DNA from: a virus
Reading direction: 5' to 3' (one strand)
IMG/VR virus record: IMGVR_UViG_3300046471_000128
Coordinates: 43,510 to 107,509 of that record
DNA: 64,000 bases
Positions within the stretch are counted from its first letter, which is position 1; every line of letters starts with the position of its first letter. A program made the translations under genes and the position numbers. The notes beneath the pieces are model-generated. The model saw nothing but the letters and a program-made list of their open reading frames with translations, was not told the origin of the DNA and made no database searches. Shown here piece by piece: positions 7,103 to 43,658 of this stretch.

Positions 7103-7453
7103 TTACTCGGTTGGACGGGCCACCATCGCCTTCAGCTCTGCGAAGCCCGCTTCGTCTCGCTCCGCCTTCAGCGGGTCGATCACTTCATCTTTGGCCGGGA
7201 AAACCTCGGCTCGGAGCTTGGCTTCGTATGCCTGGCAGGCTTCGCCGCTCTGCCGGTTTACGTGCAACATCAGGGCACGGAGATCAGTCTCCGCGAGCAG
7301 CCGGTTGATGTTGCGGTTGAGGGTCCAGAAAGCGCGAATGGGAAGCTGCATCACTTCCCAATAGGTCATGCCGTAGTGCAGCTGGACCCGGGTAAAGATC
7401 AGCCCGAAGTCGAGTTCTTCGGGCTTTGCCTCACCAGCTGCGGTTACTTTTTT
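7103..7453 (-). CDS. Tail assembly chaperone T segment, reached by -1 frameshift from the upstream gene
   Basis: The -1 frame is open from A AAA AAG (7453-7447) through ...LDFGLIFTRVQLHYGMTYWEVM... to the stop at 7103. Confidence 0.85.
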   Translation of the reverse strand, partial: KKVTAAGEAKPEELDFGLIFTRVQLHYGMTYWEVMQLPIRAFWTLNRNINRLLAETDLRALMLHVNRQSGEACQAYEAKLRAEVFPAKDEVIDPLKAERDEAGFAELKAMVARPTE

Positions 7454-7797
7454 TCGTCACCCTCGGCGCCGGCCGACGCGTCTTTCGCGTCGGGATCGAA
7501 CATGCCGCGAATGAACGCGGTCAGGATGCCGAGCTTCTCGAGCGGCAGCTTGTTGAGCACGTCTTCCGGCACCTCCGGCACCGCGCGCTTGATCGAGGCG
7601 ATCATTTCGGCGAGTTGGATCTTCGGATCGGTCACCCCTTCGAGGCGCTCGGCCGCGAGGTTCGTTTCGATGAAGTCCTCGACATTCATTTCGCGCACGT
7701 CATATGAGACACCGCCCAGCGTGATCTGGCGTTGCGGGGCCTTCGTCGGCAGCGTGTCGAGGTTCAGAATCTTGATGTTTCCGGCATTCTTGGTCAT
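7444..7797 (-). CDS. Tail assembly chaperone (gpG-like)
   Basis: Between tail tube and tape measure; ends GAA AAA AAG TAA. Confidence 0.85.
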   Translation of the reverse strand: MTKNAGNIKILNLDTLPTKAPQRQITLGGVSYDVREMNVEDFIETNLAAERLEGVTDPKIQLAEMIASIKRAVPEVPEDVLNKLPLEKLGILTAFIRGMFDPDAKDASAGAEGDEKK

Positions 7798-7872
7798 GGT
7801 GTTCTCGATGTAGGCAGGCCGGCATTACGCCGGCCTTGATATGTCACCCGTAACTCATCTACGGGGCAGAAC

Positions 7873-8388
7873 TTACGGCGTCGGGGCGCCGCCAATACCG
7901 AACAGCTCCTTCGTGGCCGGGTCCGGGTAACCGGTGAAGGTCACGTCGAAGATCCGTTCCTTTTCGACTTCGTAGGCGAAGTTCATGCCGCCCGACGTCG
8001 CCGCCAAGGGAATCACGAAGTCTTCGCTGTAGTCGGTCGCGTCCTTGCCGATCGGGTGCAGGCGCAGCTCGCCCGCGATCGACAGCAAGTCCACGCCGAT
8101 GCCCGAGGTCACGATCGCCTTCTTGTCGCTGCCCGTGCCCGTGATCGACGCGCCCGGCATCGTTGCCACCAGGTTGTCCAGCGTGGTTTCAGCCAACGGC
8201 ACCTTCACCGACACGTCGCGGGACATGATGATTTCGTTGACGGTCGACTTGCCGAACTGGTCGATGTTGACCTTGTGGGTCTGCGTCGCCACGGTCACCT
8301 GAACGCCACCTTGTGTGTAACCCAGGTCCACGCCCTTGTAGAAGACGGCGCACACGCCCAACTTCACGTTTTTTGTATCGCTTGCCAC
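7873..8388 (-). CDS. Major tail tube protein
   Basis: NVKLGVC...DLGYTQGGV...FTGYPD motif, size and synteny. Confidence 0.8.
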   Translation of the reverse strand: MASDTKNVKLGVCAVFYKGVDLGYTQGGVQVTVATQTHKVNIDQFGKSTVNEIIMSRDVSVKVPLAETTLDNLVATMPGASITGTGSDKKAIVTSGIGVDLLSIAGELRLHPIGKDATDYSEDFVIPLAATSGGMNFAYEVEKERIFDVTFTGYPDPATKELFGIGGAPTP

Positions 8389-13625: not shown

Positions 13626-15191
13626 TTACGTGGACTTCAACATCTGATTCGCGACGGTTTTGCCACCCATCTTCTGAATCTCGGCGCTAGACATAGGCGA
13701 CTGTCCCGCGCCAGGTGCAGCCAGTGCGTCCACCGGCGGCCAGCTTTTCAACTCGCCTTTCATCTTCGTGATCAGGTCTTCCTTGAGCATCGGGAAGAGC
13801 TTGTCGATCACCGAGTCCATCTGCTGACGACGCACGCCCTCGGGCGCTTCAATCATCGCGAGGCGCGCGGCGATATCGAACTCGTCATACAGCCCGCGAA
13901 CATCGAAGTTCTTCGGGTAGGCGACCATCTGCTTCGTCACGTCGGTGGCGGTCGCATCGGGCGCCGTGTCAATCGGCTGGCCGTTGTAGAGCGCGACCAG
14001 TTGACAGAGCTTGCGTTCGACCTGTTCCAGCGCGTCGGCCTTGGCCGCCAGCAACGAATTCACTCGCTCGAAGTCGTATGCCTTTGCCACGCCGGAGCTG
14101 TTGTCGATGCCCTGCGAGTTGTCTTCCTTGGTGCGCTCGCCGGCGAGGCCGATCGAGTGGTAAATCTCGTTGATGATCTTGGAGATCACCTTGACGATCA
14201 GGTCCGCCTGCTTGACGTCCGGACTGATGAACCCGGGTTTGTCGCCGCCCGAGGCGTCGTAGGTGAAAATCCGCTTGGTGCCCATCTCCACCAGCTTGTC
14301 GTGCGCCTCGTCGCCGGCGGTGAGTGCCTGCGCGGGGATCACCAGCTGGCTGAAGGTCTGGTCCTGAATGATCGCGTCGAGGTTCGACAGGTAGTTCGCG
14401 ACCGCGCGGTCCAGATACGCGGCGTCGGCGATCAGCGCGGGCGACGTGTAGGGGTCGTCGGAGATCACGTTGTCGGCGGCGAACACCGGCACCACGCCCA
14501 GCCCGTGCACGATCGGATCGTTCACGACGATGGTCTTCTTGCCCTTCGAATCCACATCGACCTGGAACATCTGCGAGAAATCGCGCGTCCACAGGCGGTA
14601 GCGGTCGATCAGCTTGCCGCTTGACTCCATCGGGTCGGCGTCATCGCGTGCCGTCTCGTAGATCAGAATCCACTGCAGCTTCGCCAGGTCGTCATAGCTC
14701 ATGTCGAGCACATGCTGGGGCTTGACGATGTAGGCGTAGACGCGCGCGTCGGCGGCCTTCTCGTCGGCCTTGGTGGTGATGTCGGCGGTCTTCGTCGAAT
14801 CGACCACGATCCACGGCCGGCCGTAGGTTGACGCTCGGTTGCTCACGCGCTTCATGAAGTCGTCGATGGGCGACTCATTGAGTGTGGCGCGCTTCCAGAA
14901 GCTCTTGATGCACTCGGGCGCGTCGTCGTTGCGCTTGATGTCGATCTTGAACACGTATTTGTCCAACAGATCGACCACTTCGCGCGTGTGATTGAAGCGG
15001 TAGGCCCGCTGCAGCCGATGGCGATACTCCTGCTCGCCCTCTTTCACGTATTTGTGCAGGTTTTGCTTAAACCACGCCCGGCCACCCTCGTAAGTGGATT
15101 CCAGGAAGTCCCAATGCGCTTCCATCTCGGCAAACACCGGGTGGCGACGCTTGATGAACTGTTCGAGCTTCTTCTGCTGACTGAGTGCCAT
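13626..15191 (-). CDS. Portal protein (start likely MALSQ at 15191)
   Basis: About 520 aa after terminase; RHP...W......Y.GG, E...Y..RL..A...N, SGVAKAYDF motifs. Confidence 0.88.
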   Translation of the reverse strand: MALSQQKKLEQFIKRRHPVFAEMEAHWDFLESTYEGGRAWFKQNLHKYVKEGEQEYRHRLQRAYRFNHTREVVDLLDKYVFKIDIKRNDDAPECIKSFWKRATLNESPIDDFMKRVSNRASTYGRPWIVVDSTKTADITTKADEKAADARVYAYIVKPQHVLDMSYDDLAKLQWILIYETARDDADPMESSGKLIDRYRLWTRDFSQMFQVDVDSKGKKTIVVNDPIVHGLGVVPVFAADNVISDDPYTSPALIADAAYLDRAVANYLSNLDAIIQDQTFSQLVIPAQALTAGDEAHDKLVEMGTKRIFTYDASGGDKPGFISPDVKQADLIVKVISKIINEIYHSIGLAGERTKEDNSQGIDNSSGVAKAYDFERVNSLLAAKADALEQVERKLCQLVALYNGQPIDTAPDATATDVTKQMVAYPKNFDVRGLYDEFDIAARLAMIEAPEGVRRQQMDSVIDKLFPMLKEDLITKMKGELKSWPPVDALAAPGAGQSPMSSAEIQKMGGKTVANQMLKST

Positions 15192-15245
15192 ATATGCCTG
15201 TGCGTGAAAAACAGGTGACAAAGTCACCTGTTACTTATTTTAAGA

Positions 15246-16532
15246 TCAAATGGATACGCCTGCAATCGTTACTTCGCGCACCGGGAACATGTATTGGATC
15301 GGGTAGCCGAGCGCATCGCCCATGTGATCCACGCCCATGCTCTTGTCGACCTCGCGGCCGCCCTCCTCATAAATCGTCTGTTCGAGCGCGCGGATCACCT
15401 CCTTGCACGGCTTGTTGACCTTCAGCTTGATCTTGCCGTCGGCCGCGCGCAGCATGCGGTTCACCGCGTTCACCCGGTCAGCCACTGGCGGGTGCTTCTT
15501 GTGATAGACGATGTGCTTGAAGCCCTTTTCCTTGAAGATGTCCAGGTCCGACTCGCCGCGTGCGTGCTGGCGATAGCCGCCGGCCGGGTCAGGGAAGATC
15601 GTCGTGCGCTTCATGAGCTTCCAGTAGAGGCGCTCGAGCTCGTTGCTGACCTCCTCGGTGTTCGAGGACTTGAGCGACAGCTCGTGCACCACCCACACCT
15701 CGCCGTTTTCCTGCGGCTGCAAGATGCAGGAGCTCATCGGGTCGATGTTAAAGTCCTGCCCCACCCAGATCGGCAGGGCCGGATTGAACGGGAAGTCGCC
15801 AACGTGCGTCTTCCGGTCGAACGGGTAATAGACCCGGCCGCTCATCGTCTCGAACGAAGCCTCAAATTCCTGCTTGAACGACTTCTCGTCCATGTCGGCG
15901 CGCGCAGCCTCGATTTCAGAGGCCGGGATGAACGGCGACGTGATGGTCGGGAACTGCCAGCTCTTCCAGCGGCCGAGGATCTGGTTCTTCGGGTCCTGCC
16001 CGAGCGCATACAGGTCGTAGAGGAAGTTGTAGGACTTCGGCGTGCCGATGAAGAGAGCGTGGCCGCCGGTTGACGCGAGCGTCGGGCGCAGCACCTTCTT
16101 CCAGGCTTCCGGGTTGATGTCCTGCACCTCGTCCATGACGAGAAAGTGCACGCCCACGCCGCGCAGCGAGTCAGGGTTGTCCGCGCCCTTCAGTTCGATC
16201 CGGGTGCCGTTGACCAGGATGATCGTGAGGGTCGTCTCGTTGACCTTTCGAATCCAGCGCTTTGGGATCGACGCGAGCAGGTCCGGCCACATGATCTGCT
16301 TTGCCATCCGGTAAGACGGCGCCACATACCACACGAGGCGCTTGGGCACTTTCGCGTATTTGATGAGCGAGACTTTGGCGAGGACCGTTTTGCCCCAGCG
16401 TCGCCCCGCCACGACCACGCGAAAGCGGTGCGGCGAGCGAAACACCTCCATCTGCTTCGGATGGAGGAAAATCGTCTGCAACTCACTCGCGATCGCCGAG
16501 ATGGTCGGCAGTCCGGGCTCACGCAGGCGCAT
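15246..16532 (-). CDS. terL: Terminase large subunit
   Basis: Walker A AGRRWGKT, Walker B LVMDE, GTP coupling motif, nuclease GQDFN...DH.GDA. Confidence 0.95.
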   Translation of the reverse strand: MRLREPGLPTISAIASELQTIFLHPKQMEVFRSPHRFRVVVAGRRWGKTVLAKVSLIKYAKVPKRLVWYVAPSYRMAKQIMWPDLLASIPKRWIRKVNETTLTIILVNGTRIELKGADNPDSLRGVGVHFLVMDEVQDINPEAWKKVLRPTLASTGGHALFIGTPKSYNFLYDLYALGQDPKNQILGRWKSWQFPTITSPFIPASEIEAARADMDEKSFKQEFEASFETMSGRVYYPFDRKTHVGDFPFNPALPIWVGQDFNIDPMSSCILQPQENGEVWVVHELSLKSSNTEEVSNELERLYWKLMKRTTIFPDPAGGYRQHARGESDLDIFKEKGFKHIVYHKKHPPVADRVNAVNRMLRAADGKIKLKVNKPCKEVIRALEQTIYEEGGREVDKSMGVDHMGDALGYPIQYMFPVREVTIAGVSI

Positions 16533-17187
16533 CGTCGTCCTCGTCGTCGAGGCTGCCCTCACCCGGGCCCGGCAGCGCCGCCATCACCTCCGCGTCGCCC
16601 ATGTCGAGGCCGGAGTCTTCCTGACGCTGCTGCATCTCGAGGATCTGGTCCGCGGTCATCTCCTGGATGCCCAGCTCCGGAAGCTCGTCTTCGTCGTTCT
16701 TCTCGCCGTCGGCGATGCCCAGCAGGATGAAGCGCTCCTCGCGCAGCGTGGAGAGCGCCTCGGCCGCGAGCTTGAGCGTCTTGATCTCGTTCTGGACGGT
16801 GGCGAACGGGCGCTTGGTCTGCTGCGCCTCGAGCAACTGCTTCTGGATCAGCCCCGCGATCACCTTCGCCGCGTTGTAATGCGACTCCTTCGTCTCGCGA
16901 ATCCGCCCGGCAATCACGCCCGCGTCGCCCGTGAGTTGCTGGTGCACCTGCTGTTGAACCGCGGCATGCACTTGGGCGCGTTTAGAGCCCTTCTCAGCGC
17001 CCGCCTTCGCGAACATGAAGCTCAGCGCGCGCGGGGTGCGGTGGAAGCGCTTGGAGAGGTCGTCAAGCGTCACCTCGCCCGATTCCCAGAGCGCGATGAT
17101 CTCCGCCTTCTGCTTCTCGGTGAGCGACTTGCTGCCGACCGTGCGACCCCCGCCTTTCTTCGGGGGCGTCTTCGTCTGTTCCGTCAC
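16519..17187 (-). CDS. terS: Terminase small subunit (HTH)
   Basis: N-terminal HTH (LTEKQKAEIIALWESGEVTLDDLSKRF), overlaps terL start. Confidence 0.75.
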   Translation of the reverse strand: MTEQTKTPPKKGGGRTVGSKSLTEKQKAEIIALWESGEVTLDDLSKRFHRTPRALSFMFAKAGAEKGSKRAQVHAAVQQQVHQQLTGDAGVIAGRIRETKESHYNAAKVIAGLIQKQLLEAQQTKRPFATVQNEIKTLKLAAEALSTLREERFILLGIADGEKNDEDELPELGIQEMTADQILEMQQRQEDSGLDMGDAEVMAALPGPGEGSLDDEDDDAPA

Positions 17188-17393
17188 GATTCGATTCCCG
17201 CAAAAAAAATGGGGCAGCCGTGTCGGTCTGCCCCTTGGAGGTGTTGCTTGAGGAGCAAACTATAACCCGGCCGCAGCCTTGTGTAAATAACCCATAACTT
17301 ATTTTGTGGGCCAGTCTTTCCCACCCGCGTCCTGCTACTCATGCTTCATCGTCCTTTTCCCGAGCCGGGGTCTACCTGACAGAAACCTTACTT

Positions 17394-17495
17394 ACTTATC
17401 ACTTTTTGGGGGTTCCCATAGTTTTTAAAATGTAATTAGTAGTTGTTTTTAAAAAAGGGGATATATATAGAGGGAACCCCCAAAAAGTGATAAGT
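17394..17495. repeat. Perfect 24-bp inverted repeat flanking a 54-bp AT-rich spacer
   Basis: acttatcactttttgggggttccc (17394-17417) and gggaacccccaaaaagtgataagt (17472-17495). Confidence 0.95.
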
Positions 17496-17523
17496 GGTAA
17501 AAACTACAAAATTTGCTTACTTT

Positions 17524-17976
17524 TTAATCAAAAACGATCTCTTCGAGAGAAATCTCCGGCTCGGGAAAAGAAAGCTCCGGGAGAGAAACCAGCTGCGGCT
17601 CGGGTAAGTTATGGCTTAGTTCCTGAGCCTCGACTTCCACAGTGACCTGCGGCTCGGGAAGAATTTCGGCCGAACCCACCGCGGCTCCCGGACCCGGTGC
17701 CGGCCGACCGGTGCCGCCGACCACGGCCCGTCCGAGATCCGTCGGCCGAACCAGACGTCGCAGGCGGCCGCGCCGGTGCTCGGCGAAGCTGCGGTCGATC
17801 AGACCGTGCCGCTCGATCGCGCGCAGGCTGAACTGCAGGCTCTCCTTGGTCGTCTTGTAGGTGAGGCGCTCAAGAAGCTGGTCGAGGTCAACCGCGGCGC
17901 CCTCAGAGGCCCCGGCGACGACCACCTTCATGATCTCGATCTGCTTGATGGTCAGATTCATCGCGGCCGGCAGCAC
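17524..17976 (-). CDS. Winged-helix (MarR-like) DNA-binding protein with acidic tail
   Basis: LTIKQIEIM...DLDQLLERL...SLQFSLRAIERHGLI...RRGR...PTDLGR. Confidence 0.7.
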   Translation of the reverse strand: MLPAAMNLTIKQIEIMKVVVAGASEGAAVDLDQLLERLTYKTTKESLQFSLRAIERHGLIDRSFAEHRRGRLRRLVRPTDLGRAVVGGTGRPAPGPGAAVGSAEILPEPQVTVEVEAQELSHNLPEPQLVSLPELSFPEPEISLEEIVFD

Positions 17977-18179
17977 CAGAAGTGATCGCCCTGCTCCGAG
18001 TGCGCGAGCGCCCGGCTGACCGTCGCGTATTCGTCCGCGCTGGGCGTGCGCACCCAGATCACGAAGTCATAGGCGCGGCCGCGGGCCTGGTCGGCCTCGT
18101 CGATCGATTCCATCGTCCAGGGCGAGAGGGCGCCCTTCGTGCCCACGATAGCGAGCGTCTTGGCGGTCGTCTTGATCAT
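17958..18179 (-). CDS. Hypothetical protein
   Basis: 73 aa ORF translationally coupled within the operon. Confidence 0.45.
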   Translation of the reverse strand: MIKTTAKTLAIVGTKGALSPWTMESIDEADQARGRAYDFVIWVRTPSADEYATVSRALAHSEQGDHFWCCRPR

Positions 18180-19165
18180 GCTGTCTCCTGAGTGGCGAGT
18201 AAGTCGAGGCGCAACGGTTCGTCGACGCCTTGGTTTTCGAAAGCGGCGAGCGGGATGCGCGCCGGCAGCGGGCGCATCGCCTGTGTGTTCGGATCCCAGT
18301 CGGGGTTGGTCCAGGCGGCATACACGGTCGCGCCGAACACGAGCTGCTGGGTCTGTTTGAGGAGATACCCGAGCTCCATCGTCTCGACGCGGCTGGTGCC
18401 GTTTAGCCGGTTGTCGCCCGACTTCTCCATCGAGCTGTTGCGGTAATAGAAGGCTCGGAGCTCCTTCAACGTGTGCTCGCGCAGGTAATCGGGCATCGCC
18501 TCGATCTCCGCCTTGATCGCCACGTAGTCGTAGGCCGGGCTCTTGAAGTGGCGCGCGAAGAACGCCAGGCCCGACTCGAACGCCGGCGCCGACTTCGGCT
18601 TCACGAAGCGCATGCCGGCCTTGATCGAGAACGGGTTGTAGCGGCTCATCGAGCTGCGGCTCTCCACATACCGGAAGCCCATCAGCCGGTAGCCGATGTT
18701 CTTGAAGCGGTAGGCAATGCCGCCGCCCCGATACATCGTGTCGAGCACCGTGCGTGAGGACAGGATCAGGTTCTTGTTGATCCAGGCCATGCGCTGCACG
18801 TTGATGAGACGCGTGTCGCGGCCGTTCTGGTTCGGCCGCATGTGCGGGAACACCTGATTGCGCCCGGAATCGAGCGGCTTGGGCACCGTGAACACCATCA
18901 CGCCGATCGTGAGCGGCGGATTCTCGCCGTCGTCGATCACCAGGCGCACGTAGCGCGGGCCGATGCCGTTCTGGCTCGCCTTGTAGTGGAGCTCATGCAA
19001 GAGCTGCCAGTCCTCCAGCGTGCCGCGCTCGACATACATGTGCTTCACGAGCGACAGGGGGCGCGTGCCGGCCGCCGGGTCACGCCAGGCGATGATCGGG
19101 CTGTCCGGATCGTCCGAGGCCGTGATCGGCCCGGCAAGGTTCAGGGCGGAGGCCGGCGCGTTCAT
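18176..19165 (-). CDS. GNAT-fold (Mom-like) acyltransferase candidate (start MNAPASA at 19165)
   Basis: Acyl-CoA-binding motif A SRTVLDTMYRGGGIA; motif B-like NPFSIKAGM; N-terminal LHY. Confidence 0.65.
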   Translation of the reverse strand: MNAPASALNLAGPITASDDPDSPIIAWRDPAAGTRPLSLVKHMYVERGTLEDWQLLHELHYKASQNGIGPRYVRLVIDDGENPPLTIGVMVFTVPKPLDSGRNQVFPHMRPNQNGRDTRLINVQRMAWINKNLILSSRTVLDTMYRGGGIAYRFKNIGYRLMGFRYVESRSSMSRYNPFSIKAGMRFVKPKSAPAFESGLAFFARHFKSPAYDYVAIKAEIEAMPDYLREHTLKELRAFYYRNSSMEKSGDNRLNGTSRVETMELGYLLKQTQQLVFGATVYAAWTNPDWDPNTQAMRPLPARIPLAAFENQGVDEPLRLDLLATQETA

Positions 19166-19491
19166 TCGAAATCCAGCCCGTCGGTGATGACGTAGTTGGC
19201 CGCGAGCCACTCCTTGATCTGCGCCTTGGTGCGTGCCCCGACGAACTGGCTCCTGACGACGGTGTTCTGGAGCACCCGCACGTTCGGCACGTTGCGCACG
19301 CCAAGCGTCTGCAGCTCGGCTTCCGAGAAGTCGGTCACGCAAAGCTCGTGGTAGCCGAAGCCATAGTCGGCCTTGAGCGCCTGGAGCGCGGGCTTCACCA
19401 CCTTGCAGGGGCCGCACCACGGCGCCGTGAAGATCACGACCTGCGGGCGGTGGGAGGAATCAACGAGTGCTGCGTCGTATTGCGGTTTCAT
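19162..19491 (-). CDS. Thioredoxin
   Basis: WCGPC active site, cis-Pro motif GVRNVP. Confidence 0.9.
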   Translation of the reverse strand: MKPQYDAALVDSSHRPQVVIFTAPWCGPCKVVKPALQALKADYGFGYHELCVTDFSEAELQTLGVRNVPNVRVLQNTVVRSQFVGARTKAQIKEWLAANYVITDGLDFE

Positions 19492-20207
19492 CAGGCCATC
19501 CGTTTCAAAAGTTCAAATGCTTCGTCGCGAGTCATCGCGCGATGCCCCTCTGCCGCGTCAGCAAGCTCGCGGTGGGCTTCGATGCGTAACTTCTCCCGGT
19601 AACGCTTCTCGATGTAGAGAGACGGCTGGAGGTCTTCCACGAGGTCGAGGTGGGTCGTTGCGACGATCACCGTCGCATTGACCTTGCGGGCGGTCTTCTG
19701 CAGCGCGAACGCGATCACCTTGGCGGCGGTCCGGTCAAGCACCGCCATGAACTCGTCGGCGACCCAGACGTCGGCCTGGCTCTCGATGGCTTTGGCGAGC
19801 TTGAAGCGGTAGCGCTGGCCGTCAGAGAGCTCGCCGGGCTTACGAATGAAGAGGTAGGCGTCGTTGAGGCCGGCGATCGACAGGAGGCGAATCGCGTCGT
19901 TGGTCGAGGTGCCGATCTGGTCGATCAGCGGCAGGTCGGGGTCGAGCGCCACCTCGTCGAGGTTGGCGACCTTCTGCCCTTCGGCAGCCATCTGGTGCGC
20001 GAGCTCGCGCAGGAGCAGCGACTTGCCCGAGCCCGACTGGCCGGTGATGTAGACGACATCGCCCCGCACCACGTCGAGGTCGAGCTTGTCGAAGATCACG
20101 AATTCCTTGTCGTCCAGGCCCAGGCCGAACGCTTCAGCGACTTCGACGACGCGCTGGCTGCGGGCCACGCGCGTGTGGAATCGCTTGTCGATGGTGTAGA
20201 TGCTCAT
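19491..20207 (-). CDS. Stand-alone ABC-type ATPase with no permease
   Basis: GQSGSGKS, signature LSDGQ, Walker B VADE, H-loop ATTH. Confidence 0.9.
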   Translation of the reverse strand: MSIYTIDKRFHTRVARSQRVVEVAEAFGLGLDDKEFVIFDKLDLDVVRGDVVYITGQSGSGKSLLLRELAHQMAAEGQKVANLDEVALDPDLPLIDQIGTSTNDAIRLLSIAGLNDAYLFIRKPGELSDGQRYRFKLAKAIESQADVWVADEFMAVLDRTAAKVIAFALQKTARKVNATVIVATTHLDLVEDLQPSLYIEKRYREKLRIEAHRELADAAEGHRAMTRDEAFELLKRMA

Positions 20208-20572
20208 GCTGGGTATGTCGGGTAGTGGCTATTGAGGCGGGAGAACCAGTCCCAGTAGCCGAGGTTGTCTTGCCAGAAGGCGCACAGGCCGTTTGCCGTG
20301 AGCGTGGTGAAGTCCTCTTCCGTGCTGGAGTTCTCCAGCCCGTAGACCCAATGGATCGCGTGCAGGCACTCGTGCAGGAAGGTGTTCGCGAGCTTCTGGG
20401 GCGTCATGCCGGGCTGCAGTCGGATGCGCTGGCCGATCGTGTTGCAGTGGCCGAACTCACGGTTGCCCTCGGCGTCGTGCTGGCTCATCAGCTCCACGAC
20501 GAACCAGTAGTTGCCTACGCGCACCGCGCGGGGCATGTCCTTGTAAGGATCAAAAACGGCGATATCAGTCAC
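20204..20572 (-). CDS. HExxH zinc metallopeptidase-like protein
   Basis: TFLHECLHAI...EE motif. Confidence 0.65.
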   Translation of the reverse strand: MTDIAVFDPYKDMPRAVRVGNYWFVVELMSQHDAEGNREFGHCNTIGQRIRLQPGMTPQKLANTFLHECLHAIHWVYGLENSSTEEDFTTLTANGLCAFWQDNLGYWDWFSRLNSHYPTYPA

Positions 20573-20579
20573 GGGTAAC

Positions 20580-21221
20580 TTATTCCAAGGTTTGGAGGAA
20601 GGTGGACAGCGCGTCGGCGCCGGCAAGCCCGGTGACAGCCTGGGCGCGCGCCATGAAGCGCACGATGTGGATCTCGTCGGCGCCTGAGACGTCCTTGAAG
20701 CCGAACACCTTCGCGAGCGGCACGCGGCGCGCGCTCACCTCGTCGGCTTTGGCGTGCGCGGCCTCTTCCTGCATCTCGACGGCGACCGCGACGTCCGGCA
20801 CGAAGGCCGCGTCGTTCAGCTCGCCGAGGTCGGCCATCGAGAACTCGAGCTCCTTCACATCGAAAATGCCGCTCAGCAGGCCCTCAATGCCCTCGATCTC
20901 GTCGCGGAACATCATCGTGTCGATGCCGCCCTCGTTCGTGCGGTTGTCCGCCAGGCGCAGCGCCCGCTTCTGCTCATCGGTCAGGCCCGACAGCACGACC
21001 ACCGGCACTTCGGTGATTGAGAGCTTGATCGCCGCCAGGCGCCGGCCGTGGCCGGCGATGATCTCGTTGTTCTCATCGATCACGATCGGCTGGGTCCAGC
21101 CGAACTGCTGGATCGACTCGACGATCTTGGCGACCTGCGCGTCGTCGTGTTTCTTGACGTTCTTCGCGTAGGGCACGAGCGCGGCGACGGCGCGTCGCTC
21201 TTCGGTGCGGGCGGGATTCAT
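20580..21221 (-). CDS. ParB/Srx-domain protein 1
   Basis: LVPY.KN...H...SI..FGWTQPI...IIAGHGR..AA...LADN. Confidence 0.85.
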   Translation of the reverse strand: MNPARTEERRAVAALVPYAKNVKKHDDAQVAKIVESIQQFGWTQPIVIDENNEIIAGHGRRLAAIKLSITEVPVVVLSGLTDEQKRALRLADNRTNEGGIDTMMFRDEIEGIEGLLSGIFDVKELEFSMADLGELNDAAFVPDVAVAVEMQEEAAHAKADEVSARRVPLAKVFGFKDVSGADEIHIVRFMARAQAVTGLAGADALSTFLQTLE

Positions 21222-21436
21222 GCGGCCTCCGGGTGTTCGAAGCGCACGCACGCGGCGGTCTTGTGGACCTTGAACCCGCCGATCCCGCAGCGCAGGTTCG
21301 TCTGGTTGACGTAGACGCTGCCACCGAAGGCGGCCTTAACCGTCACTTCCTCGAACTCGAAATGGCGGCAGCTGCCGCAGTTGTTCGGCGCGCGGCTGTA
21401 GTGCTGCGCGGCCTTGGCTTCGCTTTGTTTGCTCAT
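21218..21436 (-). CDS. Small Cys-rich protein
   Basis: CGSCRHF...RC.IGGF.V...A.C. Confidence 0.55.
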   Translation of the reverse strand: MSKQSEAKAAQHYSRAPNNCGSCRHFEFEEVTVKAAFGGSVYVNQTNLRCGIGGFKVHKTAACVRFEHPEAA

Positions 21437-21708
21437 GCTGCTTGCAGCTCCTTCTCTTCAATGGCTGGCTCAAGTGCGTCAGGAATGCACTCGGCAGGCA
21501 GCGGGGTTTGGATCTTGCGGAAAAACCGCACGACGGCGGCCTTGCGCTGGGAAAGCTTGTCGTCGAGGTCGTCATCCGGCTCGTATTCGTCGCCGTTGTC
21601 GCAGTTCTCGCAGATGGCTGGCTCCCGGTTGTGGAAGTAGCAGCTCTGGCACTCTGGGAAAAGGAACTCGGAGCGCGGGATGCGCGCAAAACCCGTCGGG
21701 CGTGTCAT
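21433..21708 (-). CDS. Small Zn-finger-like protein
   Basis: CQSC...CENC, start MTRPTG at 21708. Confidence 0.55.
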   Translation of the reverse strand: MTRPTGFARIPRSEFLFPECQSCYFHNREPAICENCDNGDEYEPDDDLDDKLSQRKAAVVRFFRKIQTPLPAECIPDALEPAIEEKELQAA

Positions 21709-22067
21709 ACCGTGATCCAGTCGTCCGCGAGCATGTCGAGGTTGGTCGGAAACCAGCCCGACCAGCTGGCGCCGTCCGTCTCGCACTTGAACAACCCATC
21801 GACGATCGCCAGTGTGTAGGTGCGCGTGAAGCCCGTTTTCCAGCCCACGCGAGAGACGCGCAGGCCCGTCTTCAATGCCTCCAGCGCCATGCCGAAGCTC
21901 ATGCCGACGGCCGGCCGGTAGGCTTTCTCGAAGACCGCCTTGGGTGACCAGCTGATGTAGCCGTCCTCGTAGCGAACTGAGTAGCCCTCTTCGGCGTTGC
22001 CCGTGACCGGGTTGATCGCGGCGAGGGGCTCCGCGTGGATGATCTTGCTGCCGATGTATCGGTTCAT
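21705..22067 (-). CDS. DUF2829 / Tad2-like cyclic-nucleotide sponge with N-terminal extension
   Basis: MSFGMALEALKTGLRVSRVGW...W.P...DMLADDW is the DUF2829 signature. Confidence 0.75.
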   Translation of the reverse strand: MNRYIGSKIIHAEPLAAINPVTGNAEEGYSVRYEDGYISWSPKAVFEKAYRPAVGMSFGMALEALKTGLRVSRVGWKTGFTRTYTLAIVDGLFKCETDGASWSGWFPTNLDMLADDWITV

Positions 22068-22726
22068 TTGTATGCCTTCATGAGATCGACGAAGGCGTTG
22101 CCCGCGTTCGTCATGGAGTCTTCGGTGGTGAACCCTTGCTCGCGCTGGCGGCGCTCGATCGCGGAGGTGATCCAGGCGACGTCTTCGACCGGCACCTTGA
22201 AGCGCATCACCTGATGGGTGGCGCCCAGGCCCGCGCCGGACAGATCAGGCATTTCGGTCTGATCCAGCTGGTCAAGCTCGTCGATGTCTATACTTGACGC
22301 TGCCAGAATCGTTTCGAGTTCGGTGTCGGTGTAAGGCATGAACAGGGCGATGTCTTCGGTGCCGAGTTCCTTGAGCAAGCGCGAGAGCGCAAGCGTGTCG
22401 TCTTCGCCGTAGCGGCCGTTGTCGACCAGGCCGATCTCCTTCGCCGTGGTGTCCGAGATCGGTCCCACATCGACGATGGGCACTTCGGTGTAGCCAAGGC
22501 GCTGCGCGGCTTCCCAGCGGTGCTGACCGCCGAGGATCTGGTAACCGGTGCCGTCTGGGTGCGGGCGCACGACGATCGGCTTGTAAACGCCGAACCGCTT
22601 GATACTGATGTCCAACTTGTCCTCATTTTCGGGAGCGACATAGTTGGTGTTCCAAGGGTTCGGGCGCAGACTTGCAACTGACACCTTGCCCTGTGCGGGG
22701 TAGATCGAGGATGGCGAAGCAGCCAT
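22064..22726 (-). CDS. ParB/Srx-domain protein 2
   Basis: LRPNPWNTN...SIKRFG..KPIVVR...ILGGQHRWEAA...DN. Confidence 0.85.
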   Translation of the reverse strand: MAASPSSIYPAQGKVSVASLRPNPWNTNYVAPENEDKLDISIKRFGVYKPIVVRPHPDGTGYQILGGQHRWEAAQRLGYTEVPIVDVGPISDTTAKEIGLVDNGRYGEDDTLALSRLLKELGTEDIALFMPYTDTELETILAASSIDIDELDQLDQTEMPDLSGAGLGATHQVMRFKVPVEDVAWITSAIERRQREQGFTTEDSMTNAGNAFVDLMKAYK

Positions 22727-22788
22727 AATGCACTCACACGTAATAAGTTACCGCTTACTATAGCGATGGAACTCCTATAAGGCAAGAA

Positions 22789-24519
22789 ATGACGACTCCC
22801 ATTACCCTCGCCGCAGGTGCGGTGAACGCCAAACTGATCGGCGCGCCGCGCGAAGCGGCGCTGCTCGTGCGCGACAAGCTCTCCTACCTGGTGGACGGCG
22901 CGAGCTACTCGCAGGCGTTCAAGGGCACCTCGTGGGACGGCACGTCAAGCTTCTACGACTTCTCGACCGGCATGTTTCCGGCGGGTTTCGTCTACAAGGT
23001 CTATTCGACGCTGCTGAAAGCCGGCTACCGGGTCAACCTCGTGAGGAAGGAAGCACCGCCGCCGCTGGGCCCGGAGCGCCCCGTGGTCGACAGCTTCGGC
23101 TACGACCCGCGCTACGCCTATCAGCCCGAGGTGGCCGACAAGCTCGTCAAGCACCGGCAGGTGATCGCCCGCGTCGCGACGGGCGGGGGTAAATCCCGGA
23201 TTGCCCGCATCTGCTACAAGCGCATCGACCGGCCGACGCTCTTTCTGACCACCCGGGGCATCCTGATGTATCAGATGGGCGAAGCCGTCGAAGAGAACCT
23301 CGGCGAGCGCGTGGGCGTCGTGGGCGACAGCCAGCGGGACTTCTCCCGCAAGTTTACGCTCGGGATGGTGCAGACGATTAGCCAGGCGATCGACAAGTGG
23401 ACCGACGACGGGGAGCTCCTCGCCTACATCAAGAACCGGGATGCGGCCGAAGACCGCGAGGTCGTGAAGCTGCAGACGCGGCTCAAGAAGCAAAAGCTGC
23501 CGCTCGGCCAGGTCGCCGACGCCACCACCGCGCTCAGGAAGACGCTCGAAGCGCAGCGCCCCGCCGACGCGCAGGTCGTGGCCGACATCCAGGCGAAGGT
23601 GCGGGATCACAACCGCAAGCGCGAGGAAATGATCGCCTTCCTGGCGAAAATTGAATTCGTTATTCTCGAGGAAGCGCATGAGGCGTCCGGCGAGGGCTTC
23701 TACGAGATCATGCGGCACTGCGTGAACGCCCACTACCGGTTGGCACTCACCGCCACGCCGTTCATGAAAGACAGCCCCGAAGCGAACATGCGGCTCGAGG
23801 CGTGCTCCGGGCCCGTGGCGATCACGGTCACTGAGAAGCAGCTGATCGACCTCGGCGTGCTTGCGCGGCCGTTCTTCAAGTTCGTGCGGCTGCAGAACGC
23901 GGCGCCCTCGTATGTCGAGACGGTCGAGAGCAAGGGAATCACGCGCCAAGTCACGCACCGGCTGTTCCGCTCGACCCCGTGGCCGAAATGCCTCGAGATC
24001 GGCGTGGTCCACAACGAGGAGCGCAACCGCGCGATCGTCTATGAGGTGAGCCGCGCGAAGCAATACGGGCTGCCGTCGATGATTCTGGTCGGCCGCCAGG
24101 AGCACGGCAAGAAGCTCGTGGAGATGCTCACGCAGGCGGGCGTGCGCTGCGCATTCATCTTCGGTGAGCACAACCAGAAGGAGCGCAAGGCCGCGCTCAA
24201 CGCGCTCGCACAGGGCAAGATCGACGCGCTGATCGGCTCGACCATCCTCGACGTGGGCGTCGATGTGCCCGCCGTCGGCATGATCGTGCTCGCGGGCGCG
24301 GGCAAAGCCGAGGTCCAGGCCCGCCAGCGCATCGGCCGGGGTCTGCGCGCGAAGAAGAAGGGGCCGAACGTTGCGTTCGTGGTCGATTTCATCGAAGCAG
24401 CCAACAGCACGCTGCGGGACCACCAGAACGAGCGCCTGTCGATCATTCAGAGCACGCCGGGCTTTGCCGAGAACATCGTGAGCGACTTCGACTACTCGAT
24501 TTTCAGGGAGGCGGCGTGA
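22789..24519 (+). CDS. Superfamily 2 helicase
   Basis: ATGGGKS, EEAH, LTATP, DVGVDVP, QRIGRGLR. Confidence 0.92.
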   Translation: MTTPITLAAGAVNAKLIGAPREAALLVRDKLSYLVDGASYSQAFKGTSWDGTSSFYDFSTGMFPAGFVYKVYSTLLKAGYRVNLVRKEAPPPLGPERPVVDSFGYDPRYAYQPEVADKLVKHRQVIARVATGGGKSRIARICYKRIDRPTLFLTTRGILMYQMGEAVEENLGERVGVVGDSQRDFSRKFTLGMVQTISQAIDKWTDDGELLAYIKNRDAAEDREVVKLQTRLKKQKLPLGQVADATTALRKTLEAQRPADAQVVADIQAKVRDHNRKREEMIAFLAKIEFVILEEAHEASGEGFYEIMRHCVNAHYRLALTATPFMKDSPEANMRLEACSGPVAITVTEKQLIDLGVLARPFFKFVRLQNAAPSYVETVESKGITRQVTHRLFRSTPWPKCLEIGVVHNEERNRAIVYEVSRAKQYGLPSMILVGRQEHGKKLVEMLTQAGVRCAFIFGEHNQKERKAALNALAQGKIDALIGSTILDVGVDVPAVGMIVLAGAGKAEVQARQRIGRGLRAKKKGPNVAFVVDFIEAANSTLRDHQNERLSIIQSTPGFAENIVSDFDYSIFREAA

Positions 24520-24521
24520 TG

Positions 24522-25304
24522 TTAAGTCCAGTTTCGTTCCAGTGCCAACGCTTCTCCTTGCTTCGTCAAACCGAGTGTATCCACCGCATAACCCGGCAAT
24601 ACCGTAACGTAGCTAGCCAGCTTGTCGACAGAGTGAGCAAATCGCAGCTTCGACACCTTCAAGTCGCGCATAAGATCGACCGAAGCGATCGCTCCATAAT
24701 GGGCAAGCAGCCTGATCATTTTCTCCTCGACCGGTGAAAATGCATGCTCGGCAGGAGCTGCTGGCGTTGCGCGAGCGGCCGGCTCGGCGAAGTCAGTTTG
24801 CGCGGGAGCGGGCTGAACCTTATCGAACGCCTTCGCAACGCCGCCCTCCAGTCCCGTCCACCCTCGCTCGAAGCGTTCTCGCAACGCCGACTCCTTTTCT
24901 GGGGCTTCGTTGGCAGTGTTGATCGCTATGACCAGGGCGAGAAAGTCCTCTTTCTCGAACACCGTAGCTTGGAACTGTGCAAGCGGGGAGGGCAATCTGC
25001 TCTTGTCGACGCGAAGGCACAGTGGATGGATCGCCGCGTTAGCCATTGACTTTGAGAGCGCGCCCGCTTCGAAATGAAGCCACGGTTCCTGCATGTTGTC
25101 CTGCGTGACGCATATGATGCCGACGTTCGTGCTGTCGAGTTCCTGCGCGAGTTGCAGCCCCCACCGCCGCCCCTTCTGAAGATCGGCATCAGACACCCAA
25201 ACGTCGGCCGTGCGAAGCGTCATTTCGAGAAAGTGCTTCAGCTCCACAGCGATCGTTTTCGCCGGCTCTTTGGACCAGCTTACGAATATCTTCATGGACC
25301 CCAT
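24522..25304 (-). CDS. TIR-domain protein with C-terminal winged helix
   Basis: IFVSWS...VWVS..DL.KG..W...L..EL...WLHFEAGA (catalytic Glu present); lower GC than neighbours. Confidence 0.85.
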   Translation of the reverse strand: MGSMKIFVSWSKEPAKTIAVELKHFLEMTLRTADVWVSDADLQKGRRWGLQLAQELDSTNVGIICVTQDNMQEPWLHFEAGALSKSMANAAIHPLCLRVDKSRLPSPLAQFQATVFEKEDFLALVIAINTANEAPEKESALRERFERGWTGLEGGVAKAFDKVQPAPAQTDFAEPAARATPAAPAEHAFSPVEEKMIRLLAHYGAIASVDLMRDLKVSKLRFAHSVDKLASYVTVLPGYAVDTLGLTKQGEALALERNWT

Positions 25305-26893: not shown

Positions 26894-27262
26894 TCGACGG
26901 GCACGGACGGTAGCTGCGGGGCGCGCCAGCGCCCCTAGCGCCGTCTGCCTGGGCCCGCAGGGCCGCGAGGGTGCGATTCCCCATGTGGACACACTCAAAG
27001 CCCCACAGCCCCTTCCCCACGTCCCACCTTCCACTTTCCCGCTGCCCCACTCCCCGCTTTGCCACGGCCCTATAAGGATCTCGGATTCGCCGAGGCCCGG
27101 CTGTATAAGGATCGGGTCTGGATCGGAAAAAAATTTCCAACGAGGCCCCACCACTATTGCGCGCCGTTCTAAGACCACCGACGTGCCGCATGGTCGGTGA
27201 TCAGTGGGCGGGGCGGGGTCGGTGCGTCCGCCCATCGTTAGATGGGCGAACTATGACGATAG

Positions 27263-27451
27263 TTAGGTTAGCGTATCAATCGACAGACTGAACCGGTCGA
27301 TTGCATGCGCGTGCATATCGCTCTGTTCGTAAGCGCGCGAATCGTAGCGCGTGGGTTGAAACACTGCATCGAATGCATCGAAGGTTTCACTGTGCGCACG
27401 TTCCCCGTGCTGGGCAATGCGGGCAAAATGAGCGCTCTGCAAGGTTTTCAT
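27263..27451 (-). CDS. Small hypothetical protein in the KCCD-free zone
   Basis: 62 aa ORF, co-oriented with neighbours. Confidence 0.35.
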   Translation of the reverse strand: MKTLQSAHFARIAQHGERAHSETFDAFDAVFQPTRYDSRAYEQSDMHAHAIDRFSLSIDTLT

Positions 27452-27515
27452 GGTCTGGTAGGTCGTCAGGTAGCAGGTAGAGAACGCGGGCGCTTTGTGC
27501 GCCCGCTATGCGCGT

Positions 27516-27698
27516 TTAGCGCGACGCGTTCAAGTGAGCACGGGCACGCGCGCGACGCATGCGGGCACGCGTTGCCCGTGTGCGGTGCGGTGCGTTATTG
27601 ATGGGTTCGGGCAATGCGTGAAAAGCGAGCACGACAGCAAGCGCGACCAGCAAGACAGACAGCAAGGGTAAAAGGTATTGATTCATCGTTAGCATCAA
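27516..27698 (-). CDS. Small membrane peptide in the KCCD-free zone
   Basis: Hydrophobic helix followed by Arg-rich tail. Confidence 0.4.
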   Translation of the reverse strand: MMLTMNQYLLPLLSVLLVALAVVLAFHALPEPINNAPHRTRATRARMRRARARAHLNASR

Positions 27699-27752
27699 TC
27701 GAAGGGTTAGAAACCCGGGCGCACCGTGCGCCCGGTAAAAGTCACAGGTTCC

Positions 27753-28424
27753 TTATTCTTTCTTCGCGCCCTTTACGAGTGAGAGGGTATCGCTAGAAGC
27801 TTGTTCTACCATCTTTGCAATTGCAGCGACAAAGGGAGATTTAGCATTCACTTCGAGCACTGCGCTTTTACCCTTAACCTTAACCATTTGACCCATATTG
27901 AGATACTTACAGAAACCATTCACACCGAACGAGCGTGAAACCTTGGTTTCTTCGCTAGTAACACCGACGCCCGGTATCACGCGACGCAGTTTCGAAACCA
28001 GCGACAGGTCTTTAACGATATCGCTAGTCGATTCGTCTCCCTTGCCCGTGTTAGCAAAGTAAAGCGCTTCGCGCGACACTGCGCCCGCATGCACTGCGCT
28101 AAGCAGGGAAAGCGCGGTAACACCGTCAAGCTTGCTGTAGTCTTTCGCATGCAGACAAGCGAAAAATTCTGATACGCGCTTGCAAGCTTTCACGCCCATG
28201 TTATCTGCAATGGTTGCAAGAAACGTTGTTTCGTCAATGCGCGCTTTTTTCAGCATGCCCGAAGCGAAAACACAAAGCGCGTCATCCCAATATGCGAGAG
28301 CGGTTTTGATATCGTCTTGCAAGTGAGCGCTGCCCGTCTTTGTGTTGTAACGATCGTTTGCGCGGTTGAATGCGATTGAAACATTTTCGAGCGTGAAAAT
28401 CGTTTCTTTAACTTGTGCGTTCAT
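27753..28424 (-). CDS. Candidate immediate-early protein, 223 aa (start MNAQVK)
   Basis: AAAGGT SD, canonical sigma70 promoter, downstream hairpin 27715-27736, unusual codon usage. Confidence 0.8.
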   Translation of the reverse strand: MNAQVKETIFTLENVSIAFNRANDRYNTKTGSAHLQDDIKTALAYWDDALCVFASGMLKKARIDETTFLATIADNMGVKACKRVSEFFACLHAKDYSKLDGVTALSLLSAVHAGAVSREALYFANTGKGDESTSDIVKDLSLVSKLRRVIPGVGVTSEETKVSRSFGVNGFCKYLNMGQMVKVKGKSAVLEVNAKSPFVAAIAKMVEQASSDTLSLVKGAKKE

Positions 28425-28484
28425 TTTGATTACCTTTGATTGAGTGTTGGTCTGTTTGCCCGGTCTCGCTGAACCGGTAGAGAA

Positions 28485-28513
28485 ATAGTAACCGCACACC
28501 TAGCCCGGTGCAA
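28485..28513 (-). promoter_or_regulatory. sigma70-type promoter TTGCAC-N17-TACTAT
   Basis: Read on - strand about 60 bp upstream of the ATG at 28424. Confidence 0.7.
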
Positions 28514-28750
28514 TAAGTATGCGAAAAAAAACGTATGGCTTTTCTATTCGCGTTGTTTTTCAGAGGAGTGCTTGAAAGGTGTTTTTGACTGTGCTATTTG
28601 CGCGGGCGCACCTGCATGCATGCTCAATAGGGAGCGCGCATATCGAATGCTTAGATAGGGATACGATGTATCGTGGATCTGATTAATCGATCATAGGGAG
28701 TTCGAACTATGTGATTGTTCGTGGACCCGATTAACCGGTCGTTAGCGGAG

Positions 28751-43175: not shown

Positions 43176-43658
43176 TTAGAAGCGCGTGCTACCGATCGCT
43201 GCGACGCCGCCGATGCCCGCGACACCACCGACTGCCGTCGCACCGAAGGTGGCACCGACCGCGGCCGCGTTGTCGACCTTGCCGAAGCCGGTCGTGCCGT
43301 TCACGATCGAGTCGCCGTCCTTCCCCGGAGCGTTGCCGGTCGTGGTCCCGTAGCTGTGGATCTCCGACAGCTGCGAGGTTTGGCTGCCCACCGTCGCACC
43401 GTGCAGGTTGATGTTGCCGCCGACGCTCGCGCTGCCCTGCGAGAGTCCGTCGGTGTGCTGGAACGACGTGCCGTTGCCGATCACCTCGGTCGTGCTGATG
43501 GCGTTGCCCGTGCTGATGCTCGACGCGCTGCCGTTGATCGTGCCGCCGTAGGTGTTTGCGAAGCCGCCGACGACTGCGCCGCCGCCTACTGCTGCACCAC
43601 TTGCGAAAGCTGCCGATGCGCCCAATGCCAGGATTGCTGCGATGATGGTCTTTTTCAT
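43176..43658 (-). CDS. Secreted Gly/Ala/Ser/Thr-rich protein (fibre- or amyloid-like composition)
   Basis: Signal peptide MKKTIIAAILALGASAAFA; GAGGAG SD; terminator 43123-43143. Confidence 0.75.
   Translation of the reverse strand: MKKTIIAAILALGASAAFASGAAVGGGAVVGGFANTYGGTINGSASSISTGNAISTTEVIGNGTSFQHTDGLSQGSASVGGNINLHGATVGSQTSQLSEIHSYGTTTGNAPGKDGDSIVNGTTGFGKVDNAAAVGATFGATAVGGVAGIGGVAAIGSTRF

Follow-up and report, generated by a model that had tools for sequence, protein, structure and literature searches.

The locus described here raises the question of what an operon that joins two ParB/Srx-domain proteins to an ATP-binding cassette (ABC) ATPase and a GNAT-fold protein does beside the terminase genes of a phage. 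It lies in IMG/VR record IMGVR_UViG_3300046471_000128, a complete uncultivated phage genome of 107,509 bp with terminal repeats, of which the last 64 kb (positions 43,510 to 107,509; hereafter the window) were analysed; a Burkholderia assembly holds a close relative of one gene of this phage. A first-pass annotation of the window had proposed that the operon writes a sequence-specific mark at the degenerate word KCCD/HGGM around the time of packaging. On sequence grounds, the ABC and GNAT genes are the separated halves of a protein that is widespread in fused form (COG2401 type), and the reading that we favour, at a probability of roughly 40%, is that the module is an ATP-driven, ParB-assisted DNA acyl-modifier that acts before packaging. 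What is new here is the split ABC/GNAT relation, the terminase linkage across lineages, the match between ParB2 and a methyltransferase-associated module, and the cargo status of the inserted genes.

The core of the operon was told apart from its inserts by comparing 58 viral contigs of SSU5-like phages that span ParB1 to terL. All 58 loci are collinear in the order ParB1-ParB2-ABC-GNAT-orf150-terS-terL, and the ABC ATPase is as conserved as terL, with a median identity of 67%. As judged from gene content and order, the core consists of ParB1 (22064-22726; Pfam ParB_N, 1.2e-14), ParB2 (20580-21221; ParB_N, 1.9e-6; phrog_930, 9e-67), a soluble ABC ATPase (19491-20207; ABC_tran, 6.5e-13) and a GNAT-fold protein of 329 residues (18176-19165; phrog_886, 3e-100), all on the minus strand, and then the DNA-binding-like orf150 (17524-17961, minus strand). 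The last of these encodes a conserved protein of 145 residues directly after GNAT in every locus; its N-terminal ~85 residues match SSU5_130 and a Cyrano protein annotated 'DNA binding domain containing', and a Pfam search with it gave no match. Annotated copies of this core are present in Salmonella phage SSU5, Escherichia phage Cyrano, Klebsiella phage-plasmids and Pseudomonas phage nickie, as well as in Stenotrophomonas, Xanthomonas and Rhizobium phages.

No Pfam or NCBIfam model matched the GNAT-fold protein of the window, and its fold was assigned from structure. An AlphaFold2 model built from 36 homologues reached a predicted local distance difference test score (pLDDT) of 87.7. When this model was searched exhaustively with VIA-align, the top 50 rows were all GNAT-type acyltransferases (Z 9.0-11.0, 120-159 residues aligned); Foldseek returned many GNATs at a probability of ~1.0, and the Atlas neighbours of the protein were GNAT clusters. 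A fused relative, P0180, passes the PF00583 (Acetyltransf_1) model in the equivalent region with 25.4 bits against a cut-off of 20.7. Motif A, the pyrophosphate-binding loop R/Q-x-x-G-x-G/A, is present as R146-G-G-G149-I-A151; in our alignment (A1), R146 and G149 do not vary and A151 reaches at least 90% conservation, the R-x-x-G-x-A motif is kept in 74 homologues, and motif A is intact in all 11 genomes compared. These results bear out the earlier call of a GNAT fold, and we are confident from the model that the SRTVLDTMYRGGGIA protein has this fold with an intact acyl-CoA motif; acyl transfer is its predicted activity.

The partner of this protein is an ABC ATPase in which Walker A, LSDGQ, Walker B/D-loop and H-loop are all intact. 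No permease or transmembrane-domain family was matched among the operon proteins, transmembrane helices not being predicted directly. A word-indexed search for longer, fused relatives of the GNAT-fold protein found none, and a full hidden Markov model (HMM) search then found many: the GNAT profile retrieved 804 proteins, many of which, mostly of ~450-500 residues, place the GNAT-like domain after residue ~200. Ten fused forms were scanned against Pfam, and all ten carry an N-terminal ABC_tran domain. The HMM of the clade's ABC protein matched 81 fused proteins (best E 1.8e-88) and that of its GNAT protein 80 (best E 2.6e-32, range 1e-26 to 1e-32). A consensus of 30 fused proteins (A2) reproduces the motifs of both window proteins, namely EAFGLG, GxSGSGKS and LSDGQ from the ATPase and HY[KR], R-x-x-G-x-G/A and [RK][FY]NPF from the GNAT, and close relatives bear the JGI name 'ABC-type ATPase with predicted acetyltransferase domain', the label of COG2401. 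Both halves of this MK0520-like type (PHROG 293/886) are thus homologous to the window proteins. The two arrangements differ in that the COG2401-type protein holds both domains in one polypeptide, whereas here they are encoded by two genes, with a thioredoxin gene between them in 42 of the 58 loci; in addition, the GNAT half of the window, unlike its fused counterpart, is extended at its N terminus and interrupted by a long helical insert that is conserved (residues 196-277). Because both domains are fused in hundreds of relatives, we take the GNAT protein to work together with the permease-less ABC ATPase. Some fused forms carry further domains: P0218 and P0207 add a family-B DNA polymerase (PolB-ABC-GNAT, 1260 residues), P0160 carries a TFIIB repeat, and a LAGLIDADG intein lies in the ABC domain of P0164. 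No PADLOC defence-system model fits the ABC or GNAT protein beyond generic ATPase similarity.

The ParB proteins bear on the nature of the substrate. ParB1 has an N-terminal domain of the ParB/Srx CTPase fold with the conserved motifs GGQHR and DNGRYGEDD, and the GHGRR motif of ParB2 is kept in all 11 genomes compared. In both proteins, the PDB matches (ParB, Spo0J and Noc) cover residues ~14-110 only; the alignments stop before the helix-turn-helix (HTH), no HTH or centromere-binding domain was detected in either, and the C-terminal ~110 residues were unmatched. Their scores against TIGR00180 (47.7 and 37.0 bits) lie under the cut-off of 58.45. No ParA gene adjoins the operon, parS not having been searched for. 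The absence of an obvious HTH and of a ParA neighbour, noted in the first-pass annotation, therefore held. SSU5-like elements are phage-plasmids, and the proteins are annotated as ParB-like partition proteins, so that one could suppose that the ParBs bind the centromere of the phage-plasmid and that the rest of the operon is unrelated cargo. Besides the missing centromere-binding domain and ParA, two findings speak against such a partition role, which we regard as very improbable: in SSU5 and RHph_N1_10, a ParA-like gene is encoded apart from this operon, and the ParB-ABC-GNAT set also occurs in phages of Gordonia, Leptospira and Pasteurella that have no relation to the SSU5-like phage-plasmids.

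ParB2 matches instead the ParB module of ParB-fused phage DNA methyltransferases (phrog_498, 2e-37; PADLOC PDLC03229, 3e-23), whose N-terminal ParB module aligns with it. The window differs from these fusions in having no methyltransferase domain; in 34 of the 58 loci ParB2 is next to the ABC-GNAT genes that come after it, and in the other 24 the HExxH insert lies between. Phage ParBs without a DNA-binding domain are required activators of 5mYOX thymine dioxygenases on double-stranded DNA (dsDNA), and DNA base-modifying pathways co-occur with ParB (27%) and with terminases (19%) (PMC13229309, 2026), in agreement with the earlier statement that ParB-like domains next to terminases often accompany DNA-modifying enzymes. 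ParB-acetyltransferase fusions were also reported in a 2025 survey (PMC12704722). The operon resembles the 5mYOX system in placing a small ParB without an obvious DNA-binding domain beside a candidate modifying enzyme, often near the terminase, and differs from it in that the partner there is an Fe/2-oxoglutarate dioxygenase, whereas here it is ABC-GNAT with two ParBs. DNA is favoured as the substrate because of the ParB2-methyltransferase match, the precedent of a ParB activator, and the PolB and TFIIB fusions.

The link to terminase extends well beyond the SSU5-like phages. In a scan of prokaryote genomes, terL (phrog_2, 1e-21) lies directly upstream of the fused gene in 53 of 80 loci, often overlapping it; these loci are almost all archaeal, mainly from Bathyarchaeia, with tail genes preceding terL. 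The fused family has undergone a strong expansion in Bathyarchaeia, whose genomes hold several copies each. On the Bathyarchaeia contigs from metagenome-assembled genomes (L085-L164), the cluster of tail genes, terL and ABC-GNAT ends at host genes, and these clusters could be proviruses or domesticated tailed-virus-like elements. Two Firmicutes prophages carry the fused ABC-GNAT, an amidoligase, a small gene, terL and portal in a row, and one of the two also has a DNA methyltransferase directly upstream. An amidoligase (phrog_2443, 1e-49) was seen between ABC-GNAT and terL at L085 9516-10406 and L114 9886-10359; this neighbour hints at a multi-step modification pathway. Among cultured phages, Gordonia phage BiggityBass has a ParB, an ABC-like protein, a gene annotated 'tRNA methyltransferase' and terminase; Leptospira phage LE3 has a ParB-like protein, a GNAT-annotated fusion and terL; and Pasteurella phage Pmp13 has a ParB (ParB2 HMM, 3e-39), the fusion, terS and terL. 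In the BcepMu-like Burkholderia phage phiE255, the fused ABC-GNAT (gp29) and a formyltransferase (gp30, PF00551) end the tail-fibre operon (L209 4986-6718), the place at which com and mom are carried in Mu; a Com-like zinc finger before gp29 was considered and rejected, gp28 not being Cys-rich. Judging from these neighbourhoods, the terminase link is ancient and repeated.

A neighbour of terminase might just as well take part in packaging. The ABC-GNAT and ParB proteins might then serve the terminase, by acetylating terminase, portal, capsid or polyamines or by processing pac/cos, and no base would be marked. We give this explanation a small though appreciable chance. The gene adjoins terL and is translationally coupled to it in the archaeal proviruses, the order with terS and terL is fixed in all 58 loci, and the structural neighbours of the GNAT protein include protein N-terminal acetyltransferases and spermidine acetyltransferases. 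A structured, AT-rich region also follows the operon directly. This spacer of 336 bp (17188-17523, minus strand), a candidate pac/cos and late-leader region, holds a perfect 26-bp inverted repeat around an AT-rich core at about 17380-17520, which is a possible pac/cos site or terminator; the sequence record of SSU5 stops at the corresponding point. Against a packaging accessory stand the phiE255 gene, which closes the tail operon a long way from the terminase, and the PolB and TFIIB fusions and the ParB2-methyltransferase link, which point to DNA chemistry rather than capsid assembly; to our knowledge, well-studied packaging systems need no such enzyme.

The spacer also modifies the view that the operon lies directly upstream of terS and terL. 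The two are adjacent, but the spacer contains a sigma70-like promoter (17287-17259) and, at most ~50 nt after it and just before the terS start, a GC hairpin with a run of eight T (about 17237-17203), an arrangement that resembles a late leader under antitermination. Because the spacer carries its own promoter, hairpin and T-run, terS (16519-17187), terL (15246-16562) and portal (13626-15227), all on the minus strand, are regarded as a separate unit.

In the DNA acyl-modification that we favour, an ABC dimer would use ATP hydrolysis to grip duplex DNA and offer a base to the catalytic site of the GNAT, which would move an acetyl or other acyl group from acyl-CoA to that base, the ATPase and the GNAT being coupled in a manner like that of TmcA/NAT10. 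The two ParB/Srx proteins would load or activate the enzyme on dsDNA, as ParB does for 5mYOX. The mark would be laid on phage DNA about to be packaged and would protect it on entry into the next host, and the thioredoxin, HExxH, Tad2-like and Cys-rich genes would be exchangeable cargo, probably for counter-defence.

Several points weigh against this proposal. The choice of DNA as substrate is drawn from genomic context, and the usual substrates of GNATs are proteins or small molecules. Phages also often carry assorted cargo genes in the stretch immediately before terS. No ParB was found beside the fused gene in the archaeal and Firmicutes loci with clade-specific ParB HMMs, the only ones used there, so ParB is not an obligate partner. 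Our literature searches found no functional study of the COG2401-type ABC-GNAT family and no report of modified DNA in SSU5, nickie or Rhizobium phages. The comparison with the Mom protein of phage Mu, made in the first-pass annotation, stands at the level of the fold but goes no further. Mom, a DNA adenine modifier, is likewise phage-encoded and of GNAT fold, and its structure (8bv8) aligns with the GNAT protein over 149 residues (VIA Z 10.6, root-mean-square deviation 3.5 Å); however, it is tied with dozens of unrelated GNATs at Z 9-11, and a profile of the 36 homologues matched no PDB chain at E up to 10, Mom included. The target of Mom is a short degenerate word, and we know of no ATPase partner, ParB or helical insert of Mom.

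The 'tRNA methyltransferase' neighbour in BiggityBass, which follows the fused gene there, also counts against DNA in that it hints at RNA. In TmcA/NAT10, an NTPase is coupled to a GNAT that acetylates cytidine in RNA, and the module could be an analogue that acetylates bases of tRNA or rRNA with an ABC ATPase in place of the helicase-type one. The pairing of an ATPase with a GNAT is that of TmcA/NAT10, and NAT10 is among the Foldseek matches, but it aligns poorly (TM 0.1-0.3), the ABC-type ATPase of the operon is not helicase-like, and no tRNA-binding domain was seen, so that the likeness is one of analogy only. No tRNA genes were found in the window, and tRNA chemistry would leave the ParB, terminase and DNA polymerase links without explanation. 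We consider an RNA substrate quite improbable.

The whole operon comprises 11 genes on the minus strand, running from 22726 to 17524 by coordinates and the list of open reading frames (ORFs), in the order ParB1, Tad2-like/DUF2829, CysA, CysB, ParB2, HExxH, ABC ATPase, thioredoxin, GNAT, orf73 and orf150. All the genes named in the first-pass annotation exist on this strand at the place given, although the Tad2-like/DUF2829 gene, orf73 and orf150 were missing from its list. Its claim of translational coupling is confirmed by the coordinates, because nine of the ten gene junctions overlap, by 4 bases of the ATGA type or by 1 base, the exception being a gap before the HExxH gene. The GNAT gene begins at 19165, not at 19420, its ATG forming an ATGA overlap with the stop codon of the thioredoxin gene. 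A consensus scan, the only search made for it, places a sigma70-like promoter (TTGCCT-17-TATAGT; 22757-22785, minus strand) in the 62-bp divergent gap between ParB1 and a gene for a UvsW-like superfamily 2 helicase (22789-24519, plus strand), which adjoins ParB1 in 57 of the 58 loci. Beyond the helicase lies a gene for a TIR-domain protein (24522-25304, minus strand; Pfam TIR_2, 2.9e-8; PADLOC 'TIR-TM' model, 6.5e-49), which may be a phage-borne defence or superinfection-exclusion gene.

Six of these genes, all on the minus strand, are accessory. The thioredoxin with its WCGPC motif (19162-19491; match 9.6e-15) is found in 42 of the 58 loci, and the HExxH (HECLH) zincin-like protein (20204-20536, with an ORF that could reach 20626) in 24; the latter has SprT-like and DUF6782 matches that are sub-threshold only, and a phrog_1233 match at 8e-11. 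Of the two small Cys-rich proteins, CysA (CxxC...CxxC, 91 residues; 21433-21708) occurs in 21 loci and CysB (CxxC, 72 residues; 21218-21436) in two. At such frequencies, the genes for the thioredoxin, the HExxH protein and the Cys-rich proteins are accessory inserts and do not belong to a fixed machine. The small coupled ORF orf73 (17958-18179) is present in eight loci. The Tad2-like/DUF2829 protein (21705-22067; PF11195, 1.5e-11), present in 15, is a candidate anti-Thoeris sponge.

That the operon hosts such a variable set of Tad2-like, thioredoxin, HExxH zincin and Cys-rich genes would fit a cargo island in which ABC-GNAT is itself a counter-defence or host-takeover enzyme with a non-DNA substrate, such as a host protein, a signalling nucleotide or an aminoacyl-tRNA, the last being what GNAT toxins acetylate. 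The GNAT toxin 7byy is among the structural neighbours of the GNAT protein, and a TIR-TM-like gene lies nearby. We nevertheless hold this to be unlikely: the core genes are not variable, the ABC protein being as conserved as terL; it would be unusual for host-specific counter-defence genes to be tied to terminase in viruses of both bacteria and archaea; and ParB2 and the polymerase fusions point to DNA.

The original proposal also tied the operon to a zone of the window that is free of KCCD/HGGM. This zone is real and under selection: on both strands of 27227-28536, which contains one gene, there is 1 KCCD/HGGM site where 56±7 are expected, and GCCC (20) and TCCC (5) remain. Whole-genome scans were performed with all 20,382 distinct degenerate 4-mers. 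All 14 SSU5-like genomes examined, SSU5 among them, have a CC-word-free island in the corresponding syntenic position, which is relaxed in three (G001, G003 and G005); the island is the top outlier in the genomes scanned whole, except G005 and G013. The avoided word varies by lineage among KCCD, GCCD, GSC, VCCK and nearly all CC. In the genome studied here, YGGM, GCCD and KCCD are avoided (best log10P -23, for YGGM). KCCD is avoided in G006 (76660-78329, log10P -54), G007 (7224-8319, -33) and G010 (43% GC; 65004-66714, -22), GSC in G011 (88396-89400, -31), GCCD in G013 (1-1043, -11) and VCCK in SSU5 (95391-96692, -19.5). For two phages only the locus was scanned, with VCCK avoided in Cyrano (-14) and GSC, with nearly all CC gone, in RHph_N1_10 (-53). 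The relaxed KCCD signal of G005 is not significant. At L001 the island spans 16168-17408 and at L004 127-1447. Relatives with an island protein of only 70-75% identity keep the purge: two lack the word completely, over 1137 and 1703 bp, and in another two the avoidance is relaxed. Since the avoided word changes but its syntenic place does not, the clade as a whole has some CC-directed activity whose preference for flanking bases varies; this activity belongs to the phage itself and not to its host.

In every case the island is found a few kb past the helicase and contains a single, rapidly evolving gene of 190-256 codons, here 27753-28424 on the minus strand, which encodes a 223-residue protein. 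The model of this protein (pLDDT 86) matches MarR, PadR and SmtB winged-helix regulators with its C-terminal half in all top 50 rows, at Z 5.6-7.0, which is weak but consistent; the product is modelled as a helical domain plus a winged helix and is a probable DNA binder. Comparison of the island-protein subgroups with hhalign gave only E 0.001 and 21% probability for A3 against A4, and no signal for the SSU5 group; common ancestry is argued from equal length and position, a shared TQ...KG motif and BFVD fold matches. No sigma70 promoter was found upstream of the island gene by consensus scan. Given the winged-helix product, the island may be the gene of a DNA binder that avoids its own or a partner's binding sites, an explanation that calls for no chemical mark.

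Nothing ties the operon to the KCCD word. Operon and island occur together in the SSU5-like phages, but this co-occurrence is not independent evidence, because both are fixed in the same clade. The predicted co-variation of operon and purge was not seen: two complete genomes from outside the clade, those of Pmp13 and phiE255, carry ABC-GNAT and showed no island in whole-genome scans. The 67 archaeal and Firmicutes loci, of at most 17 kb each, contained only composition-driven gaps, and an island could lie elsewhere in those genomes. Nor did relaxed islands go with damaged enzymes; in G001, G003 and G005, the ABC, GNAT and ParB motifs are intact, and no correlation was seen. The absence of methyltransferases stated in the first-pass annotation, by contrast, was upheld, as PF00145, PF01555 and PF02086 (C5, N4/N6 and Dam-type) had no match in the whole 107.5-kb genome. 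Because the genome lacks these enzymes, any DNA mark needs another writer, and their lack favours the earlier writer model; SSU5, by comparison, carries two methyltransferases. We regard the operon as an improbable candidate for the KCCD writer. Equally doubtful is a joint reading, in which the module would write a dense, short-word acyl mark with a CC core (KCCD here, with lineage-specific flanks) just before packaging and the winged-helix gene, kept word-free along with its flanks in every SSU5-like phage, would be readable from fully marked DNA at once after injection, the whole forming a writer-avoider-reader timing system. If true, this would be a viral epigenetic timing mechanism built on an ATP-driven GNAT used by no known DNA-modification pathway.

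Whatever the substrate, the comparison defines a widespread uncharacterised set of ParB, ABC-GNAT and terminase genes and tells its core from its cargo. The clade-wide CC-word-free island is a strong selection signal, and it is found in the experimentally tractable phages SSU5, Cyrano and RHph_N1_10. If ABC-GNAT modifies DNA, it would represent a new class of modification machinery, ATP-driven, acyl-CoA-dependent and helped by ParB, in tailed viruses of both bacteria and archaea. Such a class would matter for the evasion of restriction, for artefacts in sequencing and perhaps for enzyme tools, including in the SSU5-like phage-plasmids of Salmonella, E. coli and Klebsiella.

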